A stretch of DNA of 64,000 nucleotides, taken from assembly GCA_001778985.1 (NCBI GenBank), contig MFIU01000001.1, positions 126,001 through 190,000 of the forward strand, given 5' to 3'. Shown piece by piece: positions 20,715 through 44,869 of this stretch. How positions within the stretch are numbered: the first letter of the stretch is position 1; each line of letters opens with the position of its first letter. Position numbers and translations under genes: made by a program. The notes under the pieces were generated by a model, which was not told where the DNA came from, searched no databases, and saw only the letters and a program-made list of their open reading frames with translations. The DNA comes from Candidatus Giovannonibacteria bacterium RIFOXYD1_FULL_48_21 (GTDB taxonomy: Bacteria > Patescibacteriota > Minisyncoccia > JACPKW01 > UBA11713).

Positions 20715-20984
20715 ATGGACCAGATTTTAGTGAAGCCGATGGTAAGCGAAAAAAATACCTTACTCTCCAGCCGAGGCGTTTATGTTTTTCAGGTGGAAAA
20801 TGAGGCCAATAAGATCACGATTAAAAAAGCGGTGGAGCGTCTTTATAAGGTGAGGGTTGAGAGAGTCAATTTAGTGAAAGTTTTACCAAAGAAACGAATC
20901 TTGCGGGGCCGGGTTGGGTTTCGTCCCGGCTATAAAAAGGCGCTGGTCTTTTTGGCCGCGGGGCAGAAAATTGATTTAACATGA
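20715..20984 (+). CDS. rplW: 50S ribosomal protein L23
   Basis: MDQILVKPMVSEKNTLL... Confidence 0.9.
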   Translation: MDQILVKPMVSEKNTLLSSRGVYVFQVENEANKITIKKAVERLYKVRVERVNLVKVLPKKRILRGRVGFRPGYKKALVFLAAGQKIDLT

Positions 20985-20985
20985 A

Positions 20986-21094
20986 TCCCGTTAGAAATTC
21001 AACCAAGATTATTATAAGATATTTTGCAGTGAGCGAACTCACCTTTGGTTTTTATAATTGCGGCAAAGGCTTATTAGTAAAATTTCTAACGGGA
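20986..21094. mobile_element. MITE-like TIR element, subtype B copy 1 (109 bp)
   Basis: TIR TCCCGTTAGAAAT / ATTTCTAACGGGA; flanked by direct TGAA (20982-85 and 21095-98); the last A of the element plus TG of the repeat form the rplB ATG. Confidence 0.6.
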
Positions 21095-21921
21095 TGAAAA
21101 CTTATCGCGCCTTCACTCCATCCCGCCGGCAGATGACCGGGATTGAATATAAAAAGATTTTAACTCGTTCCGAACCCGAGAAGAGTTTGACTTTTGGCCG
21201 GAAGAGAGCTTTCGGCCGGTCGAACCAGGGACGGATTACGACCCGTCATAAGGGCGCGGGCGCGAAACGGCTTTGGCGCGAGGTGGATTTTTCTATGGAG
21301 AAAAAAGATATTCCGGCCAAAGTGCTTTCGATTGAATATGACCCCAACCGCACCGCCTTCATCGGTCTCGCGGCCTACCGCGACGGTGCGAAGCGCTACC
21401 TGGTTTTGCCCTCCGGCGTCGGCGTCGGCGATGAAATTTTAACTTCTGAAAAAGCGCCGCTGAAGCGCGGCAACCGCTTGCCTCTTAAAAATATTCCGGT
21501 CGGCAGTCAGGTCTATAATATAGAAGTTTATCCCGGCGGCGGAGCCAAACTGGTCAGGGGCGCGGGAACCTTCGCCCAGATTCTGGCGCAGGACGCGCCC
21601 ATAACTTTGCTTAAACTTCCTTCCGGGGAGATTCGAAAATTACAGGATCGCGCTTGGGCGTCTTTGGGCCAGGTTTCGAATCAGGACGCGAATTTGGTGG
21701 TGATTGGAAAAGCCGGACGTTCGCGCTGGCTCGGCATCAGGCCCACGGTTCGCGGCTCAGCCATGAACCCCGTGGATCATCCCTATGGGGGCGGCGAAGG
21801 CCGGGCGCTCCGAGGCACCAGGCGCCCTAAAAACAAGTGGGGCAAGGGGGGGCGGGGAGTGAAAACCCGTTCCAGAAAGAAGTGGTCGGCGAGTCTGATT
21901 GTTGCGAGAAGAACGAAATAA
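21094..21921 (+). CDS. rplB: 50S ribosomal protein L2
   Basis: [14 protein letters not shown]...; start placed at the Met immediately after the element (the ORF track starts inside the element at 21058). Confidence 0.9.
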
Positions 21922-21922
21922 T

Positions 21923-22249
21923 ATGGCGCGCTCTCTTAAAAAAGGTCCCTGGGTTGACCCCAAACTTTTAAAAAAAATCTCCCGCCTTGGGCGGGGCGAT
22001 AGAAGTGCGATTAAAACTTGGTCCCGGGCTTCCCAGATTTCTCCGGAGATGGTTGGTTTTACCTTTGGAGTTCATAACGGCCGCGAGTTTATCCCGGTGA
22101 CGGTCACTGAAGAAATGGTGGGACACCGCCTGGGAGAGTTTTCGCTCACTCGAAAATTTGTCAGACACGGCGGCAAGATGCAGCGGGAGCTCGAAGCCCA
22201 AGCGAAAAGCGCCGAAGTCCCTGCGGCCGCTCCCCCTGCCAAGAAATGA
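21923..22249 (+). CDS. rpsS: 30S ribosomal protein S19 (C-terminal Ala/Pro-rich extension)
   Basis: [18 protein letters not shown]...GHRLGEFS. Confidence 0.9.
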
Positions 22250-22593
22250 ATTCCATGAAAGAAGTCCCAGCTCAATTGAATTATCTAAGGATGTCTCCAC
22301 GGAAGGTGCGCGAGGTGGCTGACGTGATTCGAGGGCGTCCGGTCCAGGCCGCCCAGGAATATCTGAAATTTTTGTCCAAATCTCCCCGAGCGCCGCTCGA
22401 GAAGCTGTTGAAGTCGGCCGTCCACAACGCTAAACATAATTACGGACTCGAACCGGAGAAATTATTTATCAAAGAGCTTCGGGTGGATGGGGGCCCGACT
22501 TTGAAGCGCCAGATGCCGCGGGCTTTTGGCCGAGCTTTTCCCATTCGAAAACGCTCGAGTCACATCACCCTGGTTTTAGGAGAGAAAATATGA
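22246..22593 (+). CDS. rplV: 50S ribosomal protein L22
   Basis: L22 pattern; ATGA overlap with rpsS. Confidence 0.9.
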
Positions 22594-23243
22594 GTCATAC
22601 CGTGCATCCTTATTCATTTCGAATTGGCGTCATTAGGGATTGGAAATCTCGCTGGTTTCACGGCCGGGCCTCCTATCAGCGGACTTTAAAAGCTGATGTG
22701 ATTTTACGCGCCTGGTTGGAAGAGCGGCTTCGCGGCCGATATGTGGCCGAGATTGAAATCGAGCGCGGCCGGAACGAGCTAAATTTGATTCTAAAAACCT
22801 CGCGGCCGGGACTGCTCATCGGCCGGGGCGGAGAAGGAGTTGAAAAACTGAAAAAAGAGATTTTGACCTACGCCCAGAAACAGAAGCTCGAACTGCCCAA
22901 GAGTTTCAAGGTCACGGTTCAGGAGATTAAAGCGCCGGAAACCCACGCCAAGATTGTCGCCCAGATGATAGCGGAGGATTTGGAAAAAAGAGTTAATTTC
23001 CGGCGGGCCCTGAACCAGTCTTTGGATAAAATTATGGCCAACAAAGAAGTGAAGGGCGCCAAAGTCGCCCTCTCCGGAAGATTGGACGGCGCGGAGATGG
23101 CCCGCTATGAATGGTCCAAGCGGGGGCAGGTGCCGCTGACTACTTTGCGGGCGGATATCGATTTTGCGAAAGAGCGAGCGCACCTTCCGTACGGAGATAT
23201 CGGGATTAAAGTCTGGATTTATAAAGGCGAAAAATTTTCTTAA
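22590..23243 (+). CDS. rpsC: 30S ribosomal protein S3
   Basis: KH domain LLIGRGGEGVEKLKKEI. Confidence 0.9.
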   Translation: MSHTVHPYSFRIGVIRDWKSRWFHGRASYQRTLKADVILRAWLEERLRGRYVAEIEIERGRNELNLILKTSRPGLLIGRGGEGVEKLKKEILTYAQKQKLELPKSFKVTVQEIKAPETHAKIVAQMIAEDLEKRVNFRRALNQSLDKIMANKEVKGAKVALSGRLDGAEMARYEWSKRGQVPLTTLRADIDFAKERAHLPYGDIGIKVWIYKGEKFS

Positions 23244-23246
23244 TCC

Positions 23247-23660
23247 ATGCTTTTTCCAAAAAAAGTTAAATATAGAAAGTGGCAGAGGCTTCGCGGACAG
23301 TTCAAGGGCACAGAAAGCCGCGGGACCAAGGTGGCTTTTGGCAGCGCCGGGATTAAGGCTTTGGAATCCGGACGCATCAACTCCCAGCAGATTGAAGCCG
23401 GCCGTAAAGTTTTAACCCGCTATGTGGCCAAAGGCGGCAAGATTTGGATTCGCATTTTCCCGGACCAGCCTATAACCCAAAAACCTCCGGAAGTGACCAT
23501 GGGCGCGGGCAAAGGCGACCCGGTAGGCTATGTGGCGGTGGTGAAGCCGGGCCGGATTATTTTCGAGATTGACGGCCTTCCGAAAGAGACCGCCGTCCAA
23601 GCGCTGAAACTGGCCCAAGCCAAGCTTCCGGTCAAAACCAAGCTGGTCTCCAGACGCTAA
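23247..23660 (+). CDS. rplP: 50S ribosomal protein L16
   Basis: [14 protein letters not shown]... Confidence 0.9.
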
Positions 23661-23664
23661 TACC

Positions 23665-23862
23665 ATGAAGACGAAAGAACTTCGCGAAAAATCAAGAGAA
23701 GAATTGCTGAAACTGCTGGAAGATAAGGGAGCTTCGCTTCGCGCTTTTCGGTTTGACCTAAGTTTTAGCAAAACCAAGAATATCAAAGTCGGCCGGAATC
23801 TTAAGAAAGAGATTGCCAGAATTTTAACTCTGCTTAATGAGGAGCAACATGCCAGAAGCTAA
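23665..23862 (+). CDS. rpmC: 50S ribosomal protein L29
   Basis: MKTKELREKSREELLKLLED. Confidence 0.9.
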   Translation: MKTKELREKSREELLKLLEDKGASLRAFRFDLSFSKTKNIKVGRNLKKEIARILTLLNEEQHARS

Positions 23863-24094
23863 GCGCCCGAAAACTTTTAAAGGAGCGGTGGTGTCGGGAA
23901 AACTGCCTAAAACGCGGGTGGTTCAAGTGGACCGTTTCGTGAAAATGGCCAAGTATGGAAAATATCTTAAACGCTCCAAGCGCTTCAAAGCCCACGATGA
24001 AAATAATGAATATAAACTGGGCGACCGGGTTATTATTCAGGAGACGCGCCCGCTCTCAAAAGAAAAAAGGTGGAGGATAATTGCAAAGATATGA
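23849..24094 (+). CDS. rpsQ: 30S ribosomal protein S17
   Basis: ...[25 protein letters not shown]. Confidence 0.85.
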
Positions 24095-24456
24095 TTCAGC
24101 ATCGAACCATGTTAAAAGTTGCCGATAATACCGGAGCCGTGCTGGTCCAGTGCATTAAAGTTTTGGGCGGAACCCGGCGGCGCTGGGCCCAGCTCGGAGA
24201 TATCATCGTGGTCAGCGTGAAGAAGGCGGAGCCGCGGAAAATAGTAAAGAAAAAGGAGGTCTTGCGAGCGGTGGTGGTGCGCCAGAAAAATTCTTACCGC
24301 CGTCAGGATGGCTCCTACCTCCGGTTTGACGATAACGCGGTGGTGATTGTGGACGGCAAAGAGCCCAAGGGCGGCCGGATTTTCGGGCCGGTGCCTCGGG
24401 AACTTCGCGATAAAGGTTTTGTCAAAATTATTTCCTTGGCTCCGGAGGTGGTGTAA
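24091..24456 (+). CDS. rplN: 50S ribosomal protein L14
   Basis: [16 protein letters not shown]; SD GGTGGAGG; ATGA overlap. Confidence 0.9.
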
Positions 24457-24457
24457 T

Positions 24458-24772
24458 ATGGCGTCTCGCATCAAAAAAGGCGATATGGTCAGAATTATTT
24501 CCGGCAAAGATAGAGGCCGGGAGGGGAAGGTAATCAAAGTTTATCCAAAAGAGGAGCGGGTGCTTGTGGAAGGCTTGAATTTAAGGAAACGTCACCGCCG
24601 TCCCAGGAAAGCCGGTGAGAAAGGAAGCGTGGTTGAACTTCCGACGCCTTTTCCTTGGGCGAAAGTAATGCCGAAGTGTCCGGGGTGCGGAAAGCCGGTC
24701 CGGGTCGGCGTAAAAATTTTAGAAGACGGCGGGAGAAAGCGAATTTGTAAGAAATGCGGCTATGAATTTTAA
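24458..24772 (+). CDS. rplX: 50S ribosomal protein L24 with C-terminal CxxC...CxxC zinc-ribbon extension
   Basis: KOW motif GDMVRIISGKDRGREGKV, then CPGCGKP...CKKCGYEF. Confidence 0.85.
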   Translation: MASRIKKGDMVRIISGKDRGREGKVIKVYPKEERVLVEGLNLRKRHRRPRKAGEKGSVVELPTPFPWAKVMPKCPGCGKPVRVGVKILEDGGRKRICKKCGYEF

Positions 24773-25295
24773 GGAAAAATACGACAAAGAAGTTCGTCCG
24801 AAAATCATGAAGCAGCATGGCTATAAGTCTTTCTTGGCGGTGCCGCGCCTGATTAAAATCGTGGTTAACAGCGGCGTGGGAAAGGCTCGGGACGACAAAG
24901 AGAAAGAAACAATCGCCAAGCAGCTTTCCTTGATTGTGGGGCAGAAAGTTCAGGAGCGGCCGGCTAAAAAATCCATCGCTTCCTTCAAAACCCGTCAGGG
25001 CATGATCATCGGTTTTTCGGCCACGCTTCGCGGCCGGCGGATGTATGATTTTCTCTCGCGCCTGGTGGAGGTGGCCTTGCCGCGTTCCCGCGATTTTCGC
25101 GGGATTCCCGAGACGAGCCTGGACGAATCCGGCAACCTCACCCTCGGAATTCGGGAGTATATTGCTTTTCCGGAGATTATCGGGGAAGATATTAAGGCCA
25201 TATTCGGGCTGGAGGCCACTTTGGTCACGAACGCCAAAAGTCGAGAAGCGGCCTTGGAATTATACCGGGAATTAGGCCTGCCTTTTAAGAAATAG
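24762..25295 (+). CDS. rplE: 50S ribosomal protein L5
   Basis: YKSFLAVPRLIKIVVNSGVG. Confidence 0.9.
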   Translation: MNFKEKYDKEVRPKIMKQHGYKSFLAVPRLIKIVVNSGVGKARDDKEKETIAKQLSLIVGQKVQERPAKKSIASFKTRQGMIIGFSATLRGRRMYDFLSRLVEVALPRSRDFRGIPETSLDESGNLTLGIREYIAFPEIIGEDIKAIFGLEATLVTNAKSREAALELYRELGLPFKK

Positions 25296-25296
25296 T

Positions 25297-25482
25297 ATGG
25301 CGAAGACTTCCGTAATTGCGCGCTCAAAGAAAAAACCGAAATTTTCTAGCCGCATCGTCAGGCGCTGTTTTCGCTGCGGCCGGAAACGAGGCTATATGAG
25401 AGATTTTGAATTATGCCGCATCTGCTTTAGGGAGTTGGCTAACGAAGGCGTTATTCCCGGAATTAGGAAATCGAGCTGGTAA
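25297..25482 (+). CDS. rpsZ: 30S ribosomal protein S14 type Z (zinc-binding)
   Basis: 61 aa, CFRCGRKRGYMRDFELCRICFRE. Confidence 0.9.
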   Translation: MAKTSVIARSKKKPKFSSRIVRRCFRCGRKRGYMRDFELCRICFRELANEGVIPGIRKSSW

Positions 25483-25483
25483 G

Positions 25484-25585
25484 CCCCGTTAGAAAATCTA
25501 CATGCAATACTATTCACAAAAAATAAATATCTCTCGCAAAAACTGGTCTTGGTCGCATCAGCTTATTAGAGATTTTCTAACGGGG
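25484..25585. mobile_element. MITE-like TIR element, subtype A copy 1 (102 bp)
   Basis: 16-bp perfect TIR CCCCGTTAGAAAATCT / AGATTTTCTAACGGGG; between the rpsZ stop and the rpsH start. Confidence 0.6.
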
Positions 25586-25590
25586 TAAAT

Positions 25591-25980
25591 ATGGACCCGA
25601 TTGCGGACATGTTAACCCGAATTAAGAACGCCGCCCTTGTTAAAAAGGAGACGGTTTTAGTTCCATATTCCCAGATGAAGTTTGAGATTGCCAATATTTT
25701 GAAAGAGCGAGGCTATATTTCGCTGGTGGAGCGGCGGGGGCGCAAGAACAGAAAGTTTTTGGAACTTGGGCTGGCCTACGAACCGGACGGCTCGCCGCGG
25801 CTGCACGGCGCCAAAAGAGTTTCCAAGCCCTCCCGGCGGATTTACCGCAAAGTAGCGGAAATAAGACCGGTCCGGCGAGGTTTTGGGCTGGCAATTATTT
25901 CCACCCCGAAAGGACTCAAAGGCGACGCCGCCGCTAGGCGCGAGCGGGTCGGCGGCGAAGTTATTTGCGAAATTTGGTAA
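25591..25980 (+). CDS. rpsH: 30S ribosomal protein S8
   Basis: MDPIADMLTRIKNA. Confidence 0.9.
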   Translation: MDPIADMLTRIKNAALVKKETVLVPYSQMKFEIANILKERGYISLVERRGRKNRKFLELGLAYEPDGSPRLHGAKRVSKPSRRIYRKVAEIRPVRRGFGLAIISTPKGLKGDAAARRERVGGEVICEIW

Positions 25981-25984
25981 TTCA

Positions 25985-26086
25985 CCCCGTTAGAAAATCT
26001 ACATGCAATACTATTCACAAAAAATAAATATCTCTCGCAAAAACTGGTCTTGGTCGCATCAGCTTATTAGAGATTTTCTAACGGGG
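25985..26086. mobile_element. MITE-like TIR element, subtype A copy 2 (100% identical to copy 1)
   Basis: identical 102-bp sequence; flanks TAATTCA and TAAATG. Confidence 0.6.
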
Positions 26087-26089
26087 TAA

Positions 26090-26632
26090 ATGTCGCGATT
26101 AGGAAAAAAACCTATTTTGATTCCGAGCGGGGTCGTGGTTAAAATCCAGGGTTCGAAAGTTTCCGTCCAAGGGCCGAAGGGAGAGCTTTCGCGCGATTTT
26201 CGGAATGAGATTTCAATCGAGTCTGACGGTCAAATCGTTAAGCTTGCGCCCCGCGTCCACAGCCGGCTTTCGAAAAAACTTTGGGGCACTTACGTTTCCT
26301 TGATTAAGAACATGTTAAAGGGAGCGAGCGAAGAATTTTCCAAAAAACTTATTTTGGAGGGAATCGGTTACCGGGCCGAGCTCGCCGGCAAAGATTTGGT
26401 TCTCTTTTTGGGATTTTCGCATCCGGTAAAGTTTTCGGCTGAAGCCGGCATTAATTTTCAGGTTGAAAAAAATTTGATAACCGTTTCTGGAATCGATAAA
26501 GAAAAAGTCGGGGCTGCGGCGGCGAGGCTCCGCTCTCTTAAGAAGCCCGATCCTTACAAGGGCAAGGGTATCCGCTACGAGGGCGAGGTTATCCGCAGGA
26601 AGGCCGGCAAGAAAGCGGTCAGCACCACATAA
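26090..26632 (+). CDS. rplF: 50S ribosomal protein L6
   Basis: MSRLGKKPILIPSGVVVKIQG. Confidence 0.9.
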   Translation: MSRLGKKPILIPSGVVVKIQGSKVSVQGPKGELSRDFRNEISIESDGQIVKLAPRVHSRLSKKLWGTYVSLIKNMLKGASEEFSKKLILEGIGYRAELAGKDLVLFLGFSHPVKFSAEAGINFQVEKNLITVSGIDKEKVGAAAARLRSLKKPDPYKGKGIRYEGEVIRRKAGKKAVSTT

Positions 26633-26633
26633 G

Positions 26634-26966
26634 ATGAAATCAAAAAGATTAAGCCATCATCGAAGAATTCGGGCAAAAATTTTCGGAACGGCCGAGCGGC
26701 CGCGCCTGGCGGTTTTCCGTTCTGCGAAGCACCTCGAGGTACAGCTGGTGGACGATGCCCAGCGTAAGACCCTGTGGGGCGCGAAGGATTTAAAGATTAA
26801 AAAAGGCACCAAAACCGAACGCGCCGCCAAATTCGGCGGCGAGGCCGCGAAAGGAATTTTAGCCAAGGGTTATAAAAAAATTGTTTTTGACCGCGGCCGC
26901 TGCCAGTATCAAGGCCGCGTTAAGGTCCTGGCCGAAGCTTTAAGAAAGGGTGGTTTAGAGTTTTGA
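26634..26966 (+). CDS. rplR: 50S ribosomal protein L18
   Basis: RPRLAVFRSAKHLEVQLVDD. Confidence 0.9.
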   Translation: MKSKRLSHHRRIRAKIFGTAERPRLAVFRSAKHLEVQLVDDAQRKTLWGAKDLKIKKGTKTERAAKFGGEAAKGILAKGYKKIVFDRGRCQYQGRVKVLAEALRKGGLEF

Positions 26967-26970
26967 TTCA

Positions 26971-27072
26971 CCCCGTTAGAAAATCTACATGCAATACTAT
27001 TCACAAAAAATAAATATCTCTCGCAAAAACTGGTCTTGGTCGCATCAGCTTATTAGAGATTTTCTAACGGGG
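26971..27072. mobile_element. MITE-like TIR element, subtype A copy 3 (100% identical)
   Basis: identical 102-bp sequence; flanks TGATTCA and TAAATG. Confidence 0.6.
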
Positions 27073-27075
27073 TAA

Positions 27076-27543
27076 ATGGCTGGGCGCAGAGAAAAATCAG
27101 AATTTTCCGAAAAACTTATTGACTTAAGAAGAGTTTCCCGTGTTATGGCTGGCGGCAGACGTTTCAGTTTTCGCGCCACGGTTGTGATAGGAGACAGAAA
27201 GGGTCGGGTGGGGGTCGGCGTCGGCAAAGGGACGCATACCGCTCTGGCTATGGAAAAAGCGGTTAGGGTTGCCAAAAAAAATATGGTGGAAGTTCCGCTC
27301 TCGGAAAACGGCTCGATTCCTTTTGAAGTCCAAGCCAAATACGGCGCCGCCAGGATTATAATGCGCCCGGCCAAAGCGGGGCGGGGGCTTACGGCCGGAG
27401 GCGCGGCGCGGATTGTTCTGGAGTTGGCCGGCGTGAGCAACGCCTCGGCCAAGGTCCTTTCCCACACTAAAAATAAAATTTCCAACGCTCGGGCGGCGCT
27501 GGAGGCCTTAAGACATTTAAGATATGCAGCTTCACGAACTTAA
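27076..27543 (+). CDS. rpsE: 30S ribosomal protein S5
   Basis: LIDLRRVSRVMAGGRRFSFRATVVIGD. Confidence 0.9.
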   Translation: MAGRREKSEFSEKLIDLRRVSRVMAGGRRFSFRATVVIGDRKGRVGVGVGKGTHTALAMEKAVRVAKKNMVEVPLSENGSIPFEVQAKYGAARIIMRPAKAGRGLTAGGAARIVLELAGVSNASAKVLSHTKNKISNARAALEALRHLRYAASRT

Positions 27544-27967
27544 ACCTGACAACAAGATGAAAAAGAAAAAACGGGTGGGGCGCGGCGGCAAGCGCGGCAC
27601 TTATTCCGGCCGCGGAATCAAAGGGCAGAAGGCCCGGGCCGGACGCAGGATTCGGCCGGCGTTGCGCGATATCCTTAAAAAATTTCCCAAAAAACGCGGA
27701 TATCGAGTCAAAGTTAAGCCGCGAAGTAGTGCCGTGGTAAATTTGGAGCTTCTTGAAAAAAAGTTTGAGATAAATTCCGAGATTTCTCCCCGGACTTTAT
27801 TCGAGGCCGGGCTCGTCCGAAAAATTTCCGGAAAAATTCCGCAAGTGAAAATATTGGGCCGAGGAAAAATTACAAAAAGTTTCGCGGTTAAAGACTGCTT
27901 TTTCTCCAAAAGCGCGGAAGATGCTATAAAGAAAGCAGGAGGCAGAATATGGAAAAACTCTGGCTGA
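27524..27967 (+). CDS. rplO: 50S ribosomal protein L15 (no L30 gene precedes it)
   Basis: LHELKP...KKKRVGRGGKRGTYSGRG. Confidence 0.9.
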   Translation: MQLHELKPDNKMKKKKRVGRGGKRGTYSGRGIKGQKARAGRRIRPALRDILKKFPKKRGYRVKVKPRSSAVVNLELLEKKFEINSEISPRTLFEAGLVRKISGKIPQVKILGRGKITKSFAVKDCFFSKSAEDAIKKAGGRIWKNSG

Positions 27968-30953: not shown

Positions 30954-30963
30954 AATAAATCTA

Positions 30964-31776
30964 ATGCCGCAGCCGGATATCTACCCCGTTAGAAGTAAGT
31001 CGCCGTCGGCGACTGCCGTTCCTTTCTCGGAACGGACTTCTAACGGGGTCTATCTCTCCGTCATAATTCCCGCGTACAACGAGGCGGAGCGATTGCCTAA
31101 AACTTTAAGAAGATTTCAGGAATATTTTCAATCCAAACCCTTTTCTTATGAGATTATCGTGGCCGCGGACGGCCCTTCTGACAATACGATTGAAATTGCC
31201 CAAAATATGGCCGCGGAGATAAAAAATCTTAAGGTTTTGGAACGAAGGCAAAACCGCGGCAAAGGTTACACCGTCCGGGAAGGGATGCTGGCCGCCCAAG
31301 GCCGCCTCCGGCTTTTCGCCGACGCCGACAATTCCACGGATATTTCTCATTTTGACAAAATGCGCTCTCTTTTTGATAAGGGCTGCGACGTGGTCATTTG
31401 CTCCCGCGACGAAAAGGATGCCCCGGGCGCGAAACAAGCGGTTCCTCAAGCGTGGCCTAAGCGCCTTTTAGGGAATATGGGAAACCTTTTTATCCAATTC
31501 ATTGCGGTTCGGGGGATTTGGGACACCCAGTGCGGTTTTAAGGCTTTTCGCTCCGCGGCGGCTCAAAATATTTTCTCGCGCGCCAGAATAAACCGCTGGG
31601 GCTTTGACATCGAAGTTTTGGCGCTGGCCCGCGCTTTGAATTATAAAATCGGCATCATCCCCGCCAACTGGATAAACGACCCCAAAAGCCACGTGAAATT
31701 GTCCGGGTATTTGCAGGTTTTGTGGGAGACCGTCAAAATAAGATGGAATTTAATGACGGGCCGATATAATTTATGA
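30964..31776 (+). CDS. family-2 glycosyltransferase (DPM1-like) carrying a 23-codon in-frame element insertion near the N-terminus
   Basis: LSVIIPAYNEAERL...IIVAADGPSDNT... Confidence 0.7.
   Translation: MPQPDIYPVRSKSPSATAVPFSERTSNGVYLSVIIPAYNEAERLPKTLRRFQEYFQSKPFSYEIIVAADGPSDNTIEIAQNMAAEIKNLKVLERRQNRGKGYTVREGMLAAQGRLRLFADADNSTDISHFDKMRSLFDKGCDVVICSRDEKDAPGAKQAVPQAWPKRLLGNMGNLFIQFIAVRGIWDTQCGFKAFRSAAAQNIFSRARINRWGFDIEVLALARALNYKIGIIPANWINDPKSHVKLSGYLQVLWETVKIRWNLMTGRYNL
30984..31048. mobile_element. MITE-like TIR element, subtype D (65 bp), inserted in frame in the GT2 gene
   Basis: TIR CCCCGTTAGAAGT / ACTTCTAACGGGG; perfect 4-bp direct repeat TCTA on both sides; 65+4=69 bp keeps the reading frame. 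Confidence 0.6.
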
Positions 31777-35063: not shown

Positions 35064-35076
35064 AAATTTAAGAAGT

Positions 35077-37654: not shown

Positions 37655-38499
37655 AAAAAAGATTTAAGTATCTTTTTATTTTAGGGCTGGTCGCGATTAC
37701 GGCTCTGCTTTGGCGGCAAGTTTTTTATTTAGAGAAGAGAGAGCTGAAGTTTTACGTTCTGGACGTGGGCCAAGGGGACGCGATTTTCATTGAGACGCCG
37801 ACGAAAAACCAGATTTTAATAGACGGCGGACCGGAGCGGAGCGTTTTGGAAGAGCTCGGCGAAGTCATGCCGTTTTACGACCGCACGATTGATTTAGTTC
37901 TGCTTACGCATCCAAATTTAGACCACGCGGCCGGTTTGGTGAACGTGCTTAAAAGTTACGAAGTCAAATATTTTGTCGATACGGATGATTCTTATTATCT
38001 CGCGGAGTATGAGGAATTGAAGAAAATTGTCGAAGAGAAAAATATTTCTCGTGTTATAGCTCGTCGGGGAACGAAAATTGTTTTAGATCGCGGGGCGGAG
38101 CTTGTTATTCTTCATCCGGATAAGTTGGCCAAGGGCGAACCGAATCAAAATAGCATCATCACCCAACTCTCTTTTGGAGATATTGATTTTCTCCTTACGG
38201 GTGACGCGGAAAAAGGCGAGGAGTTAAAATTGATAGAGAATGGCGACGACCTTCAGAGCGAAGTTTTAAAAGTCGGACATCACGGCTCCAAAACTTCTTC
38301 CAATCCTTTGTTCCTGGAAAAAGTTAAGCCGCGATACGCTTTAATCTCCGTTGGCCGCCAAAACCGCTACGGCCATCCCGCGAGCGAAGTCTTAAATAGC
38401 CTCGCGCTCGCCGGCGCAAAAATTTTTCGAACCGACGCGGACTCCCGGATTAAGATTGAAAGCAACGGGACAGATTTGACTGTAAGCCCAGAAAAGTAG
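37651..38499 (+). CDS. ComEC C-terminal metallo-beta-lactamase domain protein (split gene, part 2)
   Basis: DVGQGDAIFIETP, LTHPNLDHAAGL, VGHHGSKTSS. Confidence 0.7.
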   Translation: MKKRFKYLFILGLVAITALLWRQVFYLEKRELKFYVLDVGQGDAIFIETPTKNQILIDGGPERSVLEELGEVMPFYDRTIDLVLLTHPNLDHAAGLVNVLKSYEVKYFVDTDDSYYLAEYEELKKIVEEKNISRVIARRGTKIVLDRGAELVILHPDKLAKGEPNQNSIITQLSFGDIDFLLTGDAEKGEELKLIENGDDLQSEVLKVGHHGSKTSSNPLFLEKVKPRYALISVGRQNRYGHPASEVLNSLALAGAKIFRTDADSRIKIESNGTDLTVSPEK

Positions 38500-38521
38500 T
38501 ATTATCAGAAATACTTATTTT

Positions 38522-39613
38522 ATGAAAAATTTTGATTTCCCGATTTTTAAGACAAAAACAGAAGGGGTTACGGAAAAATTTTCTCTGGAAGACCCGGTGG
38601 GGCGGCGCAAATACTTTGAAGCCAAGGCCGGGGCGGAGATAGAAAAACTTAGGGATTGGCTCTCGGGGAATAATTTCGTTGCTTTTCTTTTGGGCCCCAA
38701 AAATTCAGGCAAGGGGACATATACGAAATTATTCATGGAGGCCGTGGGTTTGGACCGAGTGGCGCATATTTCGATTGGCGATGTCGTCCGTGGCGCTCAC
38801 CAGGATTTGAGCCACGCTGCTTCCAAAAAAGAACTCGTCGAGTTTCTGAAAAAAAGATACCGCGGCGTAGTTTCCATTCAAGAAATTTGCAAGCTGATTC
38901 TCGGCTGGGGAGTTTCAACGCCGCTTTTGCCCACGGAAGCGATTTTGGCTCTGGTGGAGCGGGAAGTTTCTCGAATCGGCCGCAAGGTTATTTTCATAGA
39001 CGGCTTTCCGAGGAATCTTGACCAAATTTCACTTTCTCTTTATTTCCGAGCGCTCATCGGCTATCGCGACGACCCTGACTTTTTTGTGTTCATAGATGTT
39101 CCCGAAGCGGTGATTGACGAACGGCTGAAATTCCGCGTAATCTGTCCGCTTTGCCAAACCCCGCGCAATACGAAACTTTTACGCACGAAAGAGGTCGGCT
39201 ACGATGCGAGCAAAAAAGAGTTTTATCTTATTTGCGACAACCCAACCTGCCAGGGGTTTGGAACAGCACGGATGGTTTCGAAACAAGGAGACGAACTCGG
39301 CATTGAAGCCATTCGGGAACGGATTGAGGTTGACCGCATGGTTATGAAAACTCTCTTGGAGCTCGAAGGCGTTGACAAAATATTTCTTCGAAACAGCGTC
39401 CCGGCGGATAAAGCCGGAGAATATGTTGATGATTATGAAATAACCCCAGCTTATCTTTACGAATGGGATGAAAAACAAAAGAAAGTTTTAGTTCGAGAAG
39501 AACCCTGGACCATAAAAGACGACTCTGGAAAAGATTCATATAGCTTGTTACCGCAGCCAGTGGCCCTCGCGCTTATAAAACAACTTGCAAACAATTTATT
39601 AACAATTTATTGA
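38522..39613 (+). CDS. adenylate-kinase-family NMP kinase-like protein (long zinc-LID form with terminal extensions)
   Basis: P-loop GPKNSGKGT, FIDGFPRNLDQ (AK DGFPR motif), Zn-LID CPLC...C..C. Confidence 0.45.
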   Translation: MKNFDFPIFKTKTEGVTEKFSLEDPVGRRKYFEAKAGAEIEKLRDWLSGNNFVAFLLGPKNSGKGTYTKLFMEAVGLDRVAHISIGDVVRGAHQDLSHAASKKELVEFLKKRYRGVVSIQEICKLILGWGVSTPLLPTEAILALVEREVSRIGRKVIFIDGFPRNLDQISLSLYFRALIGYRDDPDFFVFIDVPEAVIDERLKFRVICPLCQTPRNTKLLRTKEVGYDASKKEFYLICDNPTCQGFGTARMVSKQGDELGIEAIRERIEVDRMVMKTLLELEGVDKIFLRNSVPADKAGEYVDDYEITPAYLYEWDEKQKKVLVREEPWTIKDDSGKDSYSLLPQPVALALIKQLANNLLTIY

Positions 39614-39842
39614 TACGCTTTCAACAGCGAATTCAATTACAACATAACTCCTGGACGCTGGGAACTTCACAAGCTTTTTGTGAGCGCTAGAGTGAAACTG
39701 AAGGTATCGCCAGAGCTACTACACCAAGTTATCACTCCGAAACCTCCCTATGTGCAGCCTTGCCCGTGGGCAGGCGCCGGGGACACATTATGGAGTAAAG
39801 GTAGTCTAGCAACGGCGGTGCCTTTTTGGATACAATTAGGGA

Positions 39843-40247
39843 ATGCCGGCTTTTATACCTTCCGGGAAATTTTTGTCCTGGTTTTTAATCGGCCTTCTCT
39901 TGACCCAAGGCTGGGCGTTAATCACCTCGGCCTATTTTTATATCTGGTGGCTGGATTTACTGATGCATCTCGCCGGCGGATTTTGGGCGGGCGGTCTGGG
40001 CGTTTATCTTCTCCGAGAAACTCCGCTCTCTAAATTTTTATTTTTCTTGACGGTGGTGAGTTTCGCGGCTTTAGTCGGAGTGCTGTGGGAATTTTTTGAA
40101 TTTATGACCGATCCGCTCTGGAGCATCTTGGGCCGCGAGACTTTTTTTCAAGCAGGGCTGGAAGATACTTTGGGAGATTTGTTGTCCGATCTCGTCGGCG
40201 GAGCGCTGGCCGCTATCCTTTTCCGAAAAGAAGAAAAGAAATTATAA
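39843..40247 (+). CDS. hypothetical small membrane protein
   Basis: 134 aa, 4 TM helices. Confidence 0.35.
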   Translation: MPAFIPSGKFLSWFLIGLLLTQGWALITSAYFYIWWLDLLMHLAGGFWAGGLGVYLLRETPLSKFLFFLTVVSFAALVGVLWEFFEFMTDPLWSILGRETFFQAGLEDTLGDLLSDLVGGALAAILFRKEEKKL

Positions 40248-40261
40248 TTAGGGGTAATGAA

Positions 40262-40370
40262 CCCCGTTAGAAATTCAGACGAGGCTATCATAAGATATTT
40301 TACATTGAGCAAATTCGCCTTCGGCTTTTTTAACCGCAACAAAAGTTTATTGGTAAAATTTTTAACGGGG
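40262..40370. mobile_element. MITE-like TIR element, subtype B copy 2 (109 bp, ~78% identical to copy 1)
   Basis: TIR CCCCGTTAGAAATTC / AAATTTTTAACGGGG; direct TGAA flanks (40258-61 and 40371-74); the last G plus TG form the GTG start of the downstream gene. Confidence 0.6.
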
Positions 40371-41737
40371 TGAAAATTTCTTTTTTCGGAGGAGCGCAAG
40401 AAGTGACCGGCTCCTGTTTTCTTTTCGATTCAGGCAAAACCAAGGTTTTGGTGGATTGCGGGCTTTTCCAGTGCCCGCGTTTTTGCGATATTCGTTCCAA
40501 AGAGCCCTTTCCTTTTAACCCTAAAGAAATTTCCGCGCTTTTTGTAACTCACGCCCACATCGACCATACCGGAAGGATTCCAAAACTGATTAAAGCGGGT
40601 TTTTCCGGGAAGATTTTTTCCACCCCGCCCACGAAAGAGCTTGCGGAACTGATGCTTTCCGATAGTTTGGGGGTGCTCGAAAAAGAAGCCAAGCGCCATA
40701 ATGAACCTTTGTTCTATGAAGAACGTGATATCGCCGCCGCGCTCGAGCTTTGGAAGGGAATCGATTATTATCAGAAACTTGAGATCGGCGATTTCAAAAT
40801 AAGACTGCTCGATTCCGGCCATGTTTTAGGGTCGGCCATGGTTGAGTTTGAGGTCGGCACCCGCCTGTCGGACGGGCAGGGGAAGAAAATAGTACTCACC
40901 GGAGACTTGGGAAATCCTCCCACCCCGCTTCTTCGAGATCCGGAGGAAGTGCGGGATGCCCAAGTTCTTCTCATTGAGTCTACCTACGGCAACCGCGTTC
41001 ATGAGAATCGGCCGGAGCGCAAGCTTAAGCTCGAGCGCGTCATCGAGGACACTCTTAAAGCCGGAGGGGTTCTGATGATTCCGGCTTTTTCTCTCGAGCG
41101 CACTCAAGAGCTTTTGGCCGAGATAGACGATTTGGTGCAGTTCGGCCGGATTCCCCAGGTTCCGATTTTTCTGGATTCGCCTTTGGCGATTAAAGCCACC
41201 GCCGTTTATAAAAAATACAAAAGTTATTTTAACAAAGAGGTGCACCTTAAAATCAAATCCGGAGACGACCTCTTCCGCTTTCCAGGACTTCGCTTCACGC
41301 TTACCACCGCCGAGTCAAAACAAATCAACGAGGTGCCGCCTCCGAAAATCATTATCGCGGGTTCGGGGATGTCGACCGGAGGACGGATTTTGCATCACGA
41401 ACGGCGCTATCTTTCCGACCCCAAGAGCACTCTTTTGATGGCGGGCTATCAGGCCGCGGGCTCATTGGGGAGGGTACTTCAAGACGGAGCCAGCGAGGTT
41501 ACGATTTTCGGGGAGAAAATCCCAGTGAGGGCCAGAGTTGAAACGCTTCAAGGTTATTCCGCCCATCCGGATCGGGAGCAGCTTCTGGAGTTCGTTTCCA
41601 AGAGCAAAGATTCGCTGGAGGAGGTTTTCGCGATTCAGGGCGAACCAGCGTCGTGCCTTTTCATGGTGCAGCGGATTCGGGATTATTTGGGGATTGACGC
41701 CTCGGCGCCGAAATACGGAGAAACATATGAAATATGA
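40370..41737 (+). CDS. beta-CASP family MBL-fold ribonuclease (RNase J/CPSF-like)
   Basis: VDCGLFQ, VTHAHIDHTGRIP, beta-CASP motifs; apparent GTG start created at the element junction. Confidence 0.65.
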   Translation: MKISFFGGAQEVTGSCFLFDSGKTKVLVDCGLFQCPRFCDIRSKEPFPFNPKEISALFVTHAHIDHTGRIPKLIKAGFSGKIFSTPPTKELAELMLSDSLGVLEKEAKRHNEPLFYEERDIAAALELWKGIDYYQKLEIGDFKIRLLDSGHVLGSAMVEFEVGTRLSDGQGKKIVLTGDLGNPPTPLLRDPEEVRDAQVLLIESTYGNRVHENRPERKLKLERVIEDTLKAGGVLMIPAFSLERTQELLAEIDDLVQFGRIPQVPIFLDSPLAIKATAVYKKYKSYFNKEVHLKIKSGDDLFRFPGLRFTLTTAESKQINEVPPPKIIIAGSGMSTGGRILHHERRYLSDPKSTLLMAGYQAAGSLGRVLQDGASEVTIFGEKIPVRARVETLQGYSAHPDREQLLEFVSKSKDSLEEVFAIQGEPASCLFMVQRIRDYLGIDASAPKYGETYEI

Positions 41738-41783
41738 CCCTTCAATAAGCTCAGGGTCATGGTGAGCTAAGTCGAATCCATGA
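41731..41783 (+). repeat. intergenic hairpin repeat, copy 1
   Basis: ATATGACCCTTC...CTCAGGGTCATGGTGAG.TAA.TCGAA.CCATGA; begins on the upstream stop codon. Confidence 0.5.
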
Positions 41784-41795
41784 TAAAATTATTTT

Positions 41796-42371
41796 ATGAA
41801 ACCTTCGCCGCATTCTCATCTAAAATTTAAAATCTGCGTTTCTGGCGCGGCCGAAACTGGTCATTGCGGCCCCGAAGCCCTGGAAATGGCCAAAGAGCTT
41901 GGGAGAGAAATCGCGCGTCATAAAGCCGTCTTGGTTACGGGAGCCACGACCGGCGTTCCTTTCTGGGCTTGTATCGGCGCCAAAGAAGAGGGAGGCTTTT
42001 CCATCGGACTTTCGCCGGCCCGAAACGAGAAAGAGCATATCGAAGAGTATAAACTGCCGGTGGACTATATGGACATGATTGTTTACACCGGCTTCGGCTA
42101 CGCTGGAAGGAATCTTTTGCTGACGCGCTCGGCCGATGCTGTGATTTTTGGGTGCGGCCGGATGGGAACTTTGAACGAATTTACGATTGCGTTTGAAGAC
42201 CAAAAACCAATGGGAGTTTTGGACGGCTCTTGGGAAACCGCGGATTTATTCAAAGAAGTAGTGGAAAAATCCTATCGCGGCCCGGGCAAAATTGTCTATG
42301 ATTCCGACCCGAAACGGCTTGTCGAAAAAGTGATTGAACTGATTCGCAAAGAAAAAGTGATTGAGATATGA
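41796..42371 (+). CDS. LOG/TIGR00730-like Rossmann-fold nucleotide-binding protein
   Basis: GCGRMGTLNE (GGxGTxxE) and PGGxGT-like upstream motif. Confidence 0.5.
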   Translation: MKPSPHSHLKFKICVSGAAETGHCGPEALEMAKELGREIARHKAVLVTGATTGVPFWACIGAKEEGGFSIGLSPARNEKEHIEEYKLPVDYMDMIVYTGFGYAGRNLLLTRSADAVIFGCGRMGTLNEFTIAFEDQKPMGVLDGSWETADLFKEVVEKSYRGPGKIVYDSDPKRLVEKVIELIRKEKVIEI

Positions 42372-42418
42372 CCCTTCGATTTATACTCAGGGTCATGGTG
42401 AGTAATATCGAACCATGA
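42366..42418 (+). repeat. intergenic hairpin repeat, copy 2 (~85% identical)
   Basis: same ATGACCCT...AGGGTCAT hairpin and tail; ends on the start codon of the next gene. Confidence 0.5.
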
Positions 42419-43524
42419 AGACGATTGAGGGGCTGGGGCTCTTGTTGGGAATGATTATAGGCGCAGGGCTTTTCGCCCTGCCGTATAGTTTTTTAAAATC
42501 CGGAATTTTGTGGGGCGGCTTGCTTTTTGTTTTAGTTTTTCTGATAAGCTGGCTTTTGCATTCGCTCTACGCCGCCATAATCTATATCACTCCCGGTAAA
42601 CACCGCTTCCCCGGATACATTAAATTACATCTGGGCGAGCGAGCGGAAACTCTGGCGGCGATTTTCACCTTTCTCTCTTACTACGGAGCTATGCTCGCCT
42701 ATGGCCTTTTGGGCGCGATTTTTCTCCAGACTATTTTTGGGCTTGATTTTTTATGGAGCGGAATTTTATTCTTCATCGCCGGGGGAGCGCTCTTTTTTTT
42801 GTCGCTGCGGGTGGTTGGAAAAATAAATTTCTATCTCACCCTCCCGCTTTTGGCCTTCATCCTTATTCTGGTGGTCCAATTATTTCCGGATGTGGCGAGA
42901 GAAAACTTTACCCTGCCGTCCGGCCCGGACTTTCTCCTGCCTTACGGAGTTTTTCTCTTCGCTTTCGGAGGGTACGCCGCCCTTCCGGATTTGCATGATG
43001 TTTTGGGCGCCAATCGGAGAAAACTTTCCAAAAAAATAATTTTTGCGAGCCTCGCGATTTCGGCTCTTTTTTACCTCATTTTCATTCTCGCGGTCCTGGG
43101 CGCCTCCGGCGCCCGGACTTCCCCTGACTCTTTCTCCGGGCTTCTGCCAGTCGCGGCGGGGAGCGTGGTTTTAATCGGTTCTATAATCGGAATTTTAACC
43201 GTATTTACATCGTATATCGTCTTCGGCGTCGATTTAAAACTGACTTTCCGTTACGATTACAAATTTTCAGAGGCTCATTCCTGGATTTTGGCGTTCGGAC
43301 CGCCTATTTTGCTTTTCGCTTTTGGCTTTACTGACCTGATTAAAATTTTGAGCCTCGTCGGCTCGGTCGGCCTCGGGGTTTTCGCGGTTTTTATTTTGCT
43401 GATTTCCTGGCGGGAGCGCGAAAAACTCGCGTCTTTTCTGGGTTTTGTCCCGCGGGCCTGGTGGCTTTTGCCTTTGGGAATTTTGGTTGTTCTGGGCGCC
43501 TTGCAGGATATACTTAATCTATGA
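42415..43524 (+). CDS. amino-acid permease (HAAAP/Trp-Tyr permease-like)
   Basis: 11 TM; N-terminus GLLLGMIIGAGLFALPYSF. Confidence 0.5.
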   Translation: MKTIEGLGLLLGMIIGAGLFALPYSFLKSGILWGGLLFVLVFLISWLLHSLYAAIIYITPGKHRFPGYIKLHLGERAETLAAIFTFLSYYGAMLAYGLLGAIFLQTIFGLDFLWSGILFFIAGGALFFLSLRVVGKINFYLTLPLLAFILILVVQLFPDVARENFTLPSGPDFLLPYGVFLFAFGGYAALPDLHDVLGANRRKLSKKIIFASLAISALFYLIFILAVLGASGARTSPDSFSGLLPVAAGSVVLIGSIIGILTVFTSYIVFGVDLKLTFRYDYKFSEAHSWILAFGPPILLFAFGFTDLIKILSLVGSVGLGVFAVFILLISWREREKLASFLGFVPRAWWLLPLGILVVLGALQDILNL

Positions 43525-43525
43525 A

Positions 43526-43628
43526 TCCCGTTAGAAAATCTACGAGCTTTTATATTTTAGATTCAAGCATTCTTGTTTTAGAGGGTCGGCTATGGTCAAG
43601 TCGGCCTATGGTAGATTTTCTAACGGGA
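43526..43628. mobile_element. MITE-like TIR element, subtype C (103 bp)
   Basis: TIR TCCCGTTAGAAAATCTA / TAGATTTTCTAACGGGA; direct TGAA flanks (43522-25 and 43629-32); the last A plus TG form the downstream ATG. Confidence 0.6.
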
Positions 43629-44869
43629 TGAAAATAGCGGCGGACCTTCATATCCATTCCAAATTCTCCCGGGCGGTTTCCAAGGAGATGACTTTGGAGA
43701 ATTTGGATACTTGGGCGAGAAAAAAAGGCATCAATGTTTTGGGTACAGGGGATTTCACGCATCCGCAGTGGTTTAGGGAAATAAAAGCCAAGCTTGAACC
43801 AAGCGAGGCAGGACTATACAAATTAAAGGGTTCTGATTCTGGAACGAGATTCATTCTGACGGTGGAAATTTCGAATATCTACACCAAGAATAAAAAAGGC
43901 CGAAGGGTTCATAACTTAATTTTCGTGCCGACCATCGAAGCGGCGGAGAAAATTAATGAGCGTTTGGGCTGGCAGGGGAATTTGCGCTCGGACGGCCGTC
44001 CGATTCTGGGTCTCGATTCGAAAGAACTTTTGAAAATTGTTCTCGACATTGAGCCCCGTTCGCTTTTTGTTCCGGCTCACGCCTGGACGCCTTGGTTTTC
44101 GATTTTCGGCTCCATGTCCGGTTTTGATTCCATCGAAGAATGTTTTGACGAGTATTCAAAATATATTTATGCGATTGAAACCGGGCTCTCTTCCGACCCG
44201 GCCATGAACTGGCGGCTTTCGAAGCTAGATAAAATCGCCTTGATTTCAAATTCGGACAGCCATTCCTTGGAGCGAATCGGACGGGAAGCCAATGTTTTCG
44301 ATTGCGAGCTTTCTTATGACGCGATTGTCGAGGCGATAAAATCCAAAAATCCCAAAAAGTTTCTCTATACCATCGAATTTTTTCCGGAAGAAGGAAAGTA
44401 TCACTATGATGGGCACCGGCTTTGCAATTTTTCACAAGACCCGGCCGTGACCAAAGAGAAAGGCAAAATCTGTCCAGTCTGCAAGCGGCCGATGACCATC
44501 GGAGTTTTGTACCGGGTGGAAGAGTTGGCGGATAGACCATCCGGAACAAAACCGGCCAATGCCGTCCCCTTTAAGAGTTTGGTCACGCTCGATAAAATTA
44601 TCGGCGATGCTTTGGGAGTGGGTGAGAAGTCAAAAGCCGTGCAGAGAGAATATGAAAGTTTGATTCAAAAGTTCGGAAACGAGCTCGCGGTTTTGCTTGA
44701 TGTTCGGGAATCTGATTTGAAATCCGCCACAGATTCACGAATTTCCGAAGGAATTTTGAAAGTCCGCGAAGGCAAGGTGAAAGTCACACCCGGCTATGAC
44801 GGCGAGTATGGAAAAATTTCCATTTTTAATGCCGAAGATTTAAAAGTCCCCCAAGAGAGTTTATTTTAA
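43628..44869 (+). CDS. PHP-domain protein with C-terminal zinc ribbon
   Basis: MKIAADLHIHSKFS (PHP motif I), conserved His/Asp in later motifs, CPVCKRP. Confidence 0.5.
   Translation: MKIAADLHIHSKFSRAVSKEMTLENLDTWARKKGINVLGTGDFTHPQWFREIKAKLEPSEAGLYKLKGSDSGTRFILTVEISNIYTKNKKGRRVHNLIFVPTIEAAEKINERLGWQGNLRSDGRPILGLDSKELLKIVLDIEPRSLFVPAHAWTPWFSIFGSMSGFDSIEECFDEYSKYIYAIETGLSSDPAMNWRLSKLDKIALISNSDSHSLERIGREANVFDCELSYDAIVEAIKSKNPKKFLYTIEFFPEEGKYHYDGHRLCNFSQDPAVTKEKGKICPVCKRPMTIGVLYRVEELADRPSGTKPANAVPFKSLVTLDKIIGDALGVGEKSKAVQREYESLIQKFGNELAVLLDVRESDLKSATDSRISEGILKVREGKVKVTPGYDGEYGKISIFNAEDLKVPQESLF

Follow-up and report, generated by a model that had tools for sequence, protein, structure and literature searches.

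Start-codon miniature elements of a Candidatus Giovannonibacteria ribosomal-protein region share their ends with a small unit encoding a stand-alone GIY-YIG nuclease

Ssn nucleases are stand-alone GIY-YIG enzymes that cut single-stranded DNA (ssDNA) beside the hairpin repeats known as NTS or SRM (Chenal et al., Nat Commun 2025, PMC11893778). These repeats flank the ssn genes and have also multiplied in the genome in gene-less form, and the arrangement NTS-ssnA-NTS has been likened by the authors to an insertion sequence, the nuclease being interpreted as a domesticated modulator of transformation (PMC11893778). The same paper makes no mention of target duplications, empty sites, start codons, Patescibacteria or elements of 65-130 bp of the kind called MITEs (miniature inverted-repeat transposable elements). 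Furthermore, Tsurumaki et al. 2024 (PMC11270868) reported GIY-YIG open reading frames (ORFs), left uncharacterised, from places where the rRNA genes of these bacteria carry insertions other than introns. Here we describe a 64-kb stretch of Candidatus Giovannonibacteria DNA (the window), which comprises the S10-spc ribosomal-protein region and its neighbours and carries seven short elements with common inverted ends. They are MITEs of a family of tiny elements whose gene-carrying form encodes a stand-alone GIY-YIG nuclease, which probably moves both forms.

The seven elements are bounded by (T/C)CCCGTTAGAA...TTCTAACGGG(A/G), measure 65-109 bp and have terminal inverted repeats of 13-18 bp:

20986-21094: MITE B1, 109 bp, ends T..A, at the rplB start codon; TGAA at 20982-20985 and 21095-21098
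25484-25585: MITE A1, 102 bp, ends C..G, between the rpsN stop TAA (25480-25482) and the rpsH ATG (25591); flanks TAAG/TAAA
25985-26086: MITE A2, 102 bp, between the rpsH stop TAA (25978-25980) and the rplF ATG (26090); flanks TTCA/TAAA
26971-27072: MITE A3, 102 bp, between the rplR stop TGA (26964-26966) and the rpsE ATG (27076); flanks TTCA/TAAA
30984-31048: MITE D, 65 bp, ends C..G, inside the ORF 30964-31776; TCTA at 30980-30983 and 31049-31052
40262-40370: MITE B2, 109 bp, ends C..G, at the start codon of a 455-aa ORF; TGAA at 40258-40261 and 40371-40374
43526-43628: MITE C, 103 bp, ends T..A, at the start codon of an ORF ending at 44869; TGAA at 43522-43525 and 43629-43632

A search of the window for CCCGTTAGAAA with at most one mismatch returned 14 matches, which form seven inward-facing pairs with none left over, against a mean of 2.2 and a maximum of 6 in dinucleotide-preserving shuffles; a looser 9-mer search of the window gained no solo ends. 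The seven elements with shared inverted termini had already been named in a sequence-only reading of this DNA, and the present count bears them out, as it does the identity of the three A copies (over all 102 bp; A2 and A3 agree over 113 nt when their flanks are counted in), the 78% identity of B1 and B2 and the perfect 4-bp direct repeats at four of the seven copies (TGAA at B1, B2 and C; TCTA at D). Their coding capacity is limited to short read-through ORFs of 36-38 codons. The folding and Rfam checks proposed in that reading were also made: each element folds end to end as a hairpin with z-scores of -2.5 to -8.8, D folding strongly, at -43 kcal/mol and z -8.8, into a three-way hairpin, and a scan of the window at Rfam gathering thresholds placed no family on any of the seven, finding only a tmRNA and three tRNAs. 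It should be added that the window sequence recurs in contigs of GCA_001778665.1 and of GCA_003510385.1, and that its S8 gene product is 100% identical to the partial S8 of RIFOXYC1_FULL_48_8.

Placing the copies at stop/start junctions, as was done at first, understates their precision: B1, B2 and C lie within the start codon itself, and D stands in frame in a 5' coding end. The junctions of B1, B2 and C all read ...ATGAA-(T/C)CCCG...CGGG(A/G)-TGAAAA..., the reconstructed site being A-TGAA-AA, and deletion of the element together with one TGAA gives back ATGAAAA, an ordinary Met-Lys start. On the right, the closing base of the element, which is A for B1 and C but G for B2, joins the TG of the right TGAA to rebuild an ATG or GTG, and the host proteins are therefore unaltered. 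On the left, the old start persists. At B1 the old ATG (20981-20983) is retained with the left TGAA, as is the TGA stop of rplW (20982-20984), and rplB now begins with the ATG at 21094-21096; at B2 the old ATG is at 40257-40259 and the new start is a GTG at 40370-40372; at C the upstream gene's stop TGA (43522-43524) is retained and the new ATG is at 43628-43630. In B1 and C that upstream TGA overlaps the old start (ATGA). From each old ATG an ORF of 36-38 codons runs through the element, its MNPVR... beginning supplied by the left repeat and its ...FLTG end by the right repeat, and it terminates at a TGA that overlaps the new start (ATGA in B1 and C, GTGA in B2):

20981-21097, plus strand: upstream ORF through B1, 38 codons, MNPVRNS...LLVKFLTG and stop
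40257-40373, plus strand: upstream ORF through B2, 38 codons, MNPVRNSDEAIIRYF...LLVKFLTG and stop
43521-43631, plus strand: upstream ORF through C, 36 codons, MNPVRKS...MVDFLTG and stop

In the public metagenome annotation of a contig of the same species (fetched loci are numbered with the prefix L; here L218:1391-1507), the read-through ORF of B1 is called as a 38-aa gene.

The remaining copies occupy other kinds of position. D with its duplication forms an in-frame insert of 69 nt (23 codons) after codon 7 of a family-2 glycosyltransferase (MPQPDIY-PVRSKSPSATAVPFSERTSNGVY-LSVIIPAYNE), just ahead of the LSVIIPAYNE motif, and is evidently tolerated as an N-terminal insertion. The A copies occupy the tiny intergenic gaps S14-S8, S8-L6 and L18-S5 of the ribosomal-protein operon. 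The interpretation of the direct repeats as target-site duplications thus stands for B1, B2, C and D; the A copies depart from it, A1 (TAAG/TAAA) being one mismatch short of a TAAA duplication and the flanks of A2 and A3 being TTCA before the element and TAAA after it.

Orthologous loci in related genomes show the sites without the elements. In L220, whose S8 is 91% identical, the junctions S14/S8, S8/L6 and L18/S5 read GCTGGTGATATGGACCC, TTTGGTGATATTATGTCGCGG and TTTTAATTATGGCC, correspondingly, with no element at any of them, and the same three junctions are likewise empty in L221 (70% S8 identity) and L222 (65%). L221 and L222 are empty at L23/L2, the site of B1, as well (L220 does not cover this junction), and in L222 it reads GGTATGAAGACTTAT, with an ATGA overlap identical to that reconstructed for the window. 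The window elements are therefore recent insertions and not conserved features of the operon. The sequence-only reading had taken the same element at the same site in all related genomes as the mark of a conserved regulatory RNA, and L220-L222 lack the elements; its view of non-autonomous mobile elements with common inverted termini and unrelated interiors is supported both by these empty sites and by the duplications. Among the contigs of the same species (L217-L219) all carry the MITEs, with no polymorphism between them. In L221 (6001-6525) S8 is annotated with 174 aa and seems to have absorbed an uncalled S14 frame upstream, probably as an artefact of annotation or of a frameshift and not because an element inserted there.

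The family extends far beyond one genome, to which its earlier description had been confined. Scanning one genome per species with the pattern CCCGTTAGAA-N70-100-TTCTAACGGG, which under-samples elements shorter than 90 bp, matched the termini at at least 120 loci across several phyla. Patescibacteria among the matches listed were Saccharibacteria, Paceibacterota and Nomura-, Kaiser-, Moran-, Falkow-, Berkel- and Levybacteria; the other groups among them were Omnitrophota, Planctomycetota, Deltaproteobacteria/Desulfobacterota, Thermodesulfovibrionales, Edwardsbacteria and Stahlbacteria. Pairing of half-sites in the fetched loci gave 158 elements with flanks long enough to be analysed. The bases just outside CCCG...CGGG were always complementary, T..A in 79 and C..G in 72, and the 4-nt flanks were identical on both sides in 93, an agreement expected by chance at about 1 in 256. 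These duplications were mostly of the form T-N-N-A with TGAA foremost; they comprised TGAA/TTCA (42/93), TAAA/TTTA (19/93), TGAG/CTCA (8/93), TGGA/TCCA (6/93) and TCAA/TTGA (5/93). The last base of the element and the first two duplicated bases made an ATG or GTG opening an ORF of at least 60 aa in 84 of the 158 elements. Host starts were occupied by 69 of the 79 T..A elements and by 14 of the 72 C..G elements, which sit mainly at intergenic TAAA/TTTA; a targeting of stop codons by the C..G class was considered and rejected, only 4/72 adjoining the stop of a long ORF. Two loci (L064:1262-1290 and L093:3952-3979) carry minimal hairpins of about 28 nt, in which nothing but a short loop separates the two inverted repeats, and these resemble the SRM/NTS hairpins of the Ssn system in size.

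A single transposase encoded outside the window had been supposed to move the elements. No mobilising gene was indeed found in the window by tblastn, and the only gene found between such termini elsewhere encodes a GIY-YIG nuclease. Two elements of 277-280 bp with the family ends (L120:3888-4164 and L063:6919-7198) each encode one protein, 84-86 aa long, whose GIY-YIG domain matches PF01541 (E 4e-16 and 5e-14) and which has hundreds of relatives at 80-88% identity and of exactly 84 aa. A metagenome scan by protein alignment yielded 502 relatives, and of the best 80 of these 502, which were examined, 75 genes are bracketed by the repeat pair in units of 274-284 bp. Their layout is a left repeat, 8-12 nt, a GIY-YIG ORF of 84-86 codons and a right repeat, with ends T..A in 48 and C..G in 22 of the 75; perfect 4-nt duplications flank 36 (TGAA 20, TGGA 7, TAAA 3, TGAG 3). 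An ATG or GTG stands at the right junction of 52, in 43 of which it opens a host ORF, and the nuclease ORF is invariably oriented toward the host gene. In the 84-aa form its stop is the TAA of TCTAACGGG, 4 nt ahead of the host ATG; in the 86-aa form, ending ...CTA ACG GGA TGA, it is the duplication's own TGA, which overlaps the host ATG. Isoforms of 92 aa (P0047, P0063, P0089 and P0103) begin with M(D/S)PVRD; they start at the displaced ATG of the host, from which the frame runs through the left repeat and on into the nuclease ORF. Purifying selection acts on this ORF (median dN/dS 0.12).

Repeat variants change jointly at both ends of the units (CCCGTACGAAAT/ATTTCGTACGGG, CACGTACGAAAT/ATTTCGTACGTG, CCCGTTAAAGA/TCTTTAACGGG and TACGTTAGAGAC/GTCTCTAACGTA), the AGAA repeat type of the window recurs at two nuclease-unit loci (L137 and L210), and where a nuclease unit and a MITE lie within a few kb of each other their repeat dialect (GTTAGA or GTACGA) is the same in 13/13 loci. 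A nuclease unit and a MITE stand head to tail with a single common ATGAA or ATGGA in L152, L157, L160, L165, L188, L205 and L212, which argues that the regenerated start codon was hit again. The unit is also polymorphic: L121 reads TAGAATGGA, 278 bp of element and TGGAAATTCTAGAG, and the orthologues of this site in L223-L225, at 79-80% identity, are empty (GGCAATGGAAATTCTAGAAAAG, AACGATGGAAATTCTAGGG). With empty sites for four of the window copies and for one copy that carries the nuclease gene, the family is shown to be mobile. In L130-L136 one nuclease unit has a TraC-like gene on one side and a TraG-like gene on the other, within a patescibacterial cluster for type IV secretion or conjugation, which is a plausible vehicle for the unit between lineages. 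Other GIY-YIG genes found near MITEs (L001:4427-4651 and L075:1953-2156) were set aside as members of other subfamilies without inverted repeats; that of L001 directly follows a tRNA-gene-like sequence, and its subfamily may have an insertion habit of its own.

The protein is a single domain of 84-86 aa in which PF01541 alone was recognised. About 1,900 clusters at 50% identity match its profile at E <= 1e-10, and it scores 20-23 bits against TIGR01453, where the cut-off is 56. Among solved structures those closest in sequence, BH0048 (E 2e-10) and EF2693, are UPF0213 proteins, and its AlphaFold2 model (pLDDT 90) is a bare GIY-YIG fold with BH0048 as the best structural match, followed by Slx1 and HIGLE. 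Slx1 is a structure-selective nuclease for branched DNA. The protein is UPF0213/Slx1-like and belongs to the lineage that Dunin-Horkawicz et al. 2006 (PMC1564403) described as 'prokaryotic stand-alone Slx1-like'.

Elements bounded by (T/C)CCCGTTAGA...TCTAACGGG(A/G) duplicate 4 bp of target on insertion. Their usual landing site is A-TGNN, the start codon of a host gene, and the old ATG, often together with the upstream TGA stop, survives in the left copy of the duplication. In the model that we favour, the repeat pair would join both ends of the element as a hairpin or cruciform, a substrate of the Slx1-like or Ssn-like kind, which the nuclease may cut at the base; acting in trans on the repeat pair, it could mobilise the MITEs along with its own unit. 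Expression of the unit would rely on the promoter and ribosome-binding site of the host gene, and ribosomes finishing the nuclease ORF or the upstream ORF of a MITE may restart at the adjacent host ATG by termination-reinitiation. Through the MITE interior the frame of the old ATG is open in 23/60 elements, against 12/120 for the other frames (shuffling predicts 7.6; Fisher p 1.5e-5), and this, together with the ATGA or GTGA ends of the upstream ORFs of B1, B2 and C, supports the hand-on of ribosomes. How an open upstream ORF ends follows from element length modulo 3: with remainder 0 it runs to the TAA of the repeat, with 1 to the overlapping TGA, and with 2 it becomes an in-frame fusion. A bolder claim, to which we give somewhat less than even credence, takes the unit of 274-284 bp for an autonomous DNA transposon with the 84-aa GIY-YIG nuclease as its sole protein.

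Several observations weigh against this model. No nuclease gene was found in the 64-kb window by tblastn, and similarity between the window MITEs and the nuclease units is confined by blastn to the ends of 12-19 nt; the idea that the MITEs are simple internal deletions of the unit was rejected on the same grounds. Exact 4-nt duplications are lacking at 65/158 elements. At A2 and A3 the flanks TTCA and TAAA are of inverted type and form no direct repeat, and such TTYA...TRAA flanks recur elsewhere in elements of the C..G class, MITEs and nuclease units alike, which the model leaves unexplained; possible sources are hairpin-templated correction of flanks, a longer subfamily repeat or recombination between copies. 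Translational coupling as a universal property was rejected, since the upstream ORF is open in 23/60 MITEs, and an alternative to coupling is that the hairpin bridges the ribosome-binding site to the new start. Location in start codons could itself result from selection, that is, from the survival of harmless insertions, and not from targeting. Three features favour at least some targeting, namely re-insertion in tandem, the constant orientation of nuclease units and the near-exclusive placement of T..A elements at starts. We know of no 84-aa hydrolytic nuclease without a DNA-binding or strand-transfer domain that has been shown to transpose DNA with a 4-nt duplication or otherwise.

A rival reading is that an unseen conventional transposase, for which an IS1380- or piggyBac-like enzyme is one candidate, moves MITEs and units together. 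The GIY-YIG gene would then be mere cargo, or would encode a nuclease of the homing or addiction kind that rides in a MITE; what is known of GIY-YIG enzymes is that they are hydrolases, not transposases. Ends beginning with CC and 4-bp duplications are found in IS1380 and in piggyBac (TTAA, CCC... ends), similar to the present family, whose ends begin with CCC and whose duplication is 4 bp of T-N-N-A type. The lack of a nuclease gene in the window and the unrelated MITE interiors speak for such an enzyme too. We nevertheless regard it as unlikely. In 1.33 Mb of fetched loci, each of at most 8 kb and selected for these ends, no end pair lay 320-5000 bp apart, bar one nuclease unit with a nested MITE, so this sample holds no larger element with these ends, and no element of 1.5-2 kb with a DDE/DDD gene, as expected of IS1380 or piggyBac, was found there. 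A role as mere cargo also agrees poorly with the exact position of 75/80 genes of the subfamily between the repeats, their C-terminal codons and stop being taken from the repeat or the duplication, with the co-variation of repeat dialects with the nuclease unit in 13/13 loci and with the strong purifying selection on the ORF.

A little less probable still is that the nuclease only makes breaks and that copies arise by break-induced or replication template switching at microhomologies of 4-5 nt (ATGAA and the like), in which case the apparent duplication would be the flanks of the donor. The skew of the duplications to a few words (TGAA/TTCA 42/93, TAAA/TTTA 19/93), the frequent repetition of a 6-nt context and the tandem insertions at the same ATGAA would all fit, and nuclease activity alone is what the sequence and the modelled fold lead one to expect of the protein. 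Against such copying stand the many different duplications (TGGA, TGAG, TCAA, TCTA, TATG, CGCA and others) and the terminal T..A or C..G pair, which travels with the element whatever the flank, as in ATGAAC on the left and GTGAAT on the right. Finally, it is very improbable that the elements are no mobile DNA but structured RNAs with a regulatory role and vertical inheritance, for instance terminators, riboregulators or processing sites of operons: the strong hairpin folds (z -2.5 to -8.8) and the position of four window elements between ribosomal-protein genes are what one would expect of such RNAs, and this reading is contradicted by the empty sites (L220, at 91% S8 identity, lacks all three A copies and L222 lacks B1 as well), the unrelated interiors of the subtypes, the target duplications, the absence of any Rfam family match and the occurrence of the same ends at hundreds of unrelated sites in many phyla.

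If the nuclease unit is an autonomous transposon, it would represent a transposase class outside the catalogue of DDE, DEDD, HUH, serine, tyrosine and Cas1 enzymes and, at less than 300 bp, an autonomous mobile element far smaller than any other that is known in cells; a protein consisting of a nuclease only would join the short list of enzymes that move DNA. Such a unit would colonise start codons, borrow the initiation signals of the host and return its ribosomes by stop-start coupling, and would have seeded MITE families in Patescibacteria, Omnitrophota, Planctomycetota and Desulfobacterota. It would illustrate how selfish DNA can live in genomes with almost no intergenic space, inside a start codon which it rebuilds while coupling its translation to that of the host. 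Furthermore, the model offers a testable role for the large uncharacterised family of stand-alone Slx1/UPF0213-like GIY-YIG proteins and a link to the Ssn ssDNA nucleases, and the element may account for the rRNA-gene insertions of non-intron type that carry GIY-YIG ORFs (PMC11270868). At such elements gene callers can be expected to misplace starts, to call spurious ORFs of 36-38 aa and to add N-terminal extensions. A literature search of incomplete coverage found no account of a GIY-YIG element in bacteria that has inverted ends and duplicates its target, nor of its start-codon insertion or MITEs, and for the terminus sequence it gave nothing but primers and unrelated papers; the 278-bp GIY-YIG element is apparently widespread and undescribed.

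Apart from the elements, the window contains a repetition of the last ~118 nt of the ORF ending at 48058 (...RFSDGWDMYVYEFADTNRWRVEDRVSFRN and stop), at 87% identity. The second copy lies ~380 nt downstream, outside any long ORF, and looks like a decayed duplicate of the 3' end of the gene. The tmRNA matches the full 374-position Rfam model with only 271 nt and is therefore of a compact form.

47947-48064: last ~118 nt of the ORF ending at 48058, first copy
48328-48445: second copy of the same sequence
53006-53276, minus strand: tmRNA, 271 nt, 110 bits
6626-6697, 6699-6769 and 10528-10599: three tRNAs from the Rfam scan

Among known systems, GIY-YIG homing endonucleases (T4 Seg, I-TevI relatives) share with the nuclease unit a gene wedged between host genes and a selfish mode of spread. 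They differ from it by a large DNA-binding domain, one cognate site and the lack of inverted ends and duplications, whereas the protein found here is a bare 84-aa nuclease domain and its element occurs at hundreds of different genes. IS200/IS605 and REP/RAYT systems are comparable in their hairpin-dependent mobility, in the very small size of the elements and in the spread of gene-less REP/REPIN sequences by one small enzyme. That enzyme is, however, an HUH Y1 transposase acting 3' of a fixed tetra- or pentanucleotide, without terminal inverted repeats or duplication, whereas the present family has a GIY-YIG ORF and inverted ends and duplicates 4 bp of target.

Classical bacterial MITEs (Correia/CREE of Neisseria, RUP, Nezha and MITEAba12) are likewise short and non-coding, with inverted ends, a short duplication, many copies, hairpin-forming transcripts and insertion near genes. 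The window elements have the features by which bacterial MITEs are recognised: a length below 300 bp with no gene for their own mobilisation, common inverted ends, target duplication (perfect at four of the seven copies), empty sites and ends identical to those of a gene-carrying element. The difference is that classical MITEs derive from, or share ends with, DDE insertion sequences, whereas the sole coding partner here is a GIY-YIG nuclease; moreover, the classical families are not known to us to insert precisely into start codons and to rebuild the ATG or GTG there. Rickettsia palindromic elements, compared here by description, are palindromes of 100-150 bp that lie in frame inside genes, as copy D does, and differ in that they insert in frame within genes and not into start codons. 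Rickettsia is also among the SRM-rich genera (PMC11893778).

The Ssn/NTS system is the closest one described. Its nuclease is a single-domain GIY-YIG protein of ~85-95 aa without a DNA-binding domain, comparable with the 84-86 aa found here, and its gene lies between inverted repeats that also occur without the gene, just as 75/80 genes are flanked here and the MITEs are the gene-less copies. In the Ssn system, however, each repeat is a self-contained hairpin of 20-50 nt, whereas here each end carries one inverted repeat of 12-18 nt; the SRM consensus HGTCWY..YYVSBRH..WNVSBRG..RNCYNB matches 0/75 nuclease units with 100 nt on each side, and has no match in the window; and the nearest solved relatives of the present nuclease are UPF0213 proteins. 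The Neisseria NTS begins with CGTCATTCCCGCG (PMC11893778), and junctions in minus orientation here read TTCAT-CCCG, a likeness that may be a coincidence or a recognition motif common to the nuclease lineage. We describe the gene-carrying unit as being of Ssn-like type.

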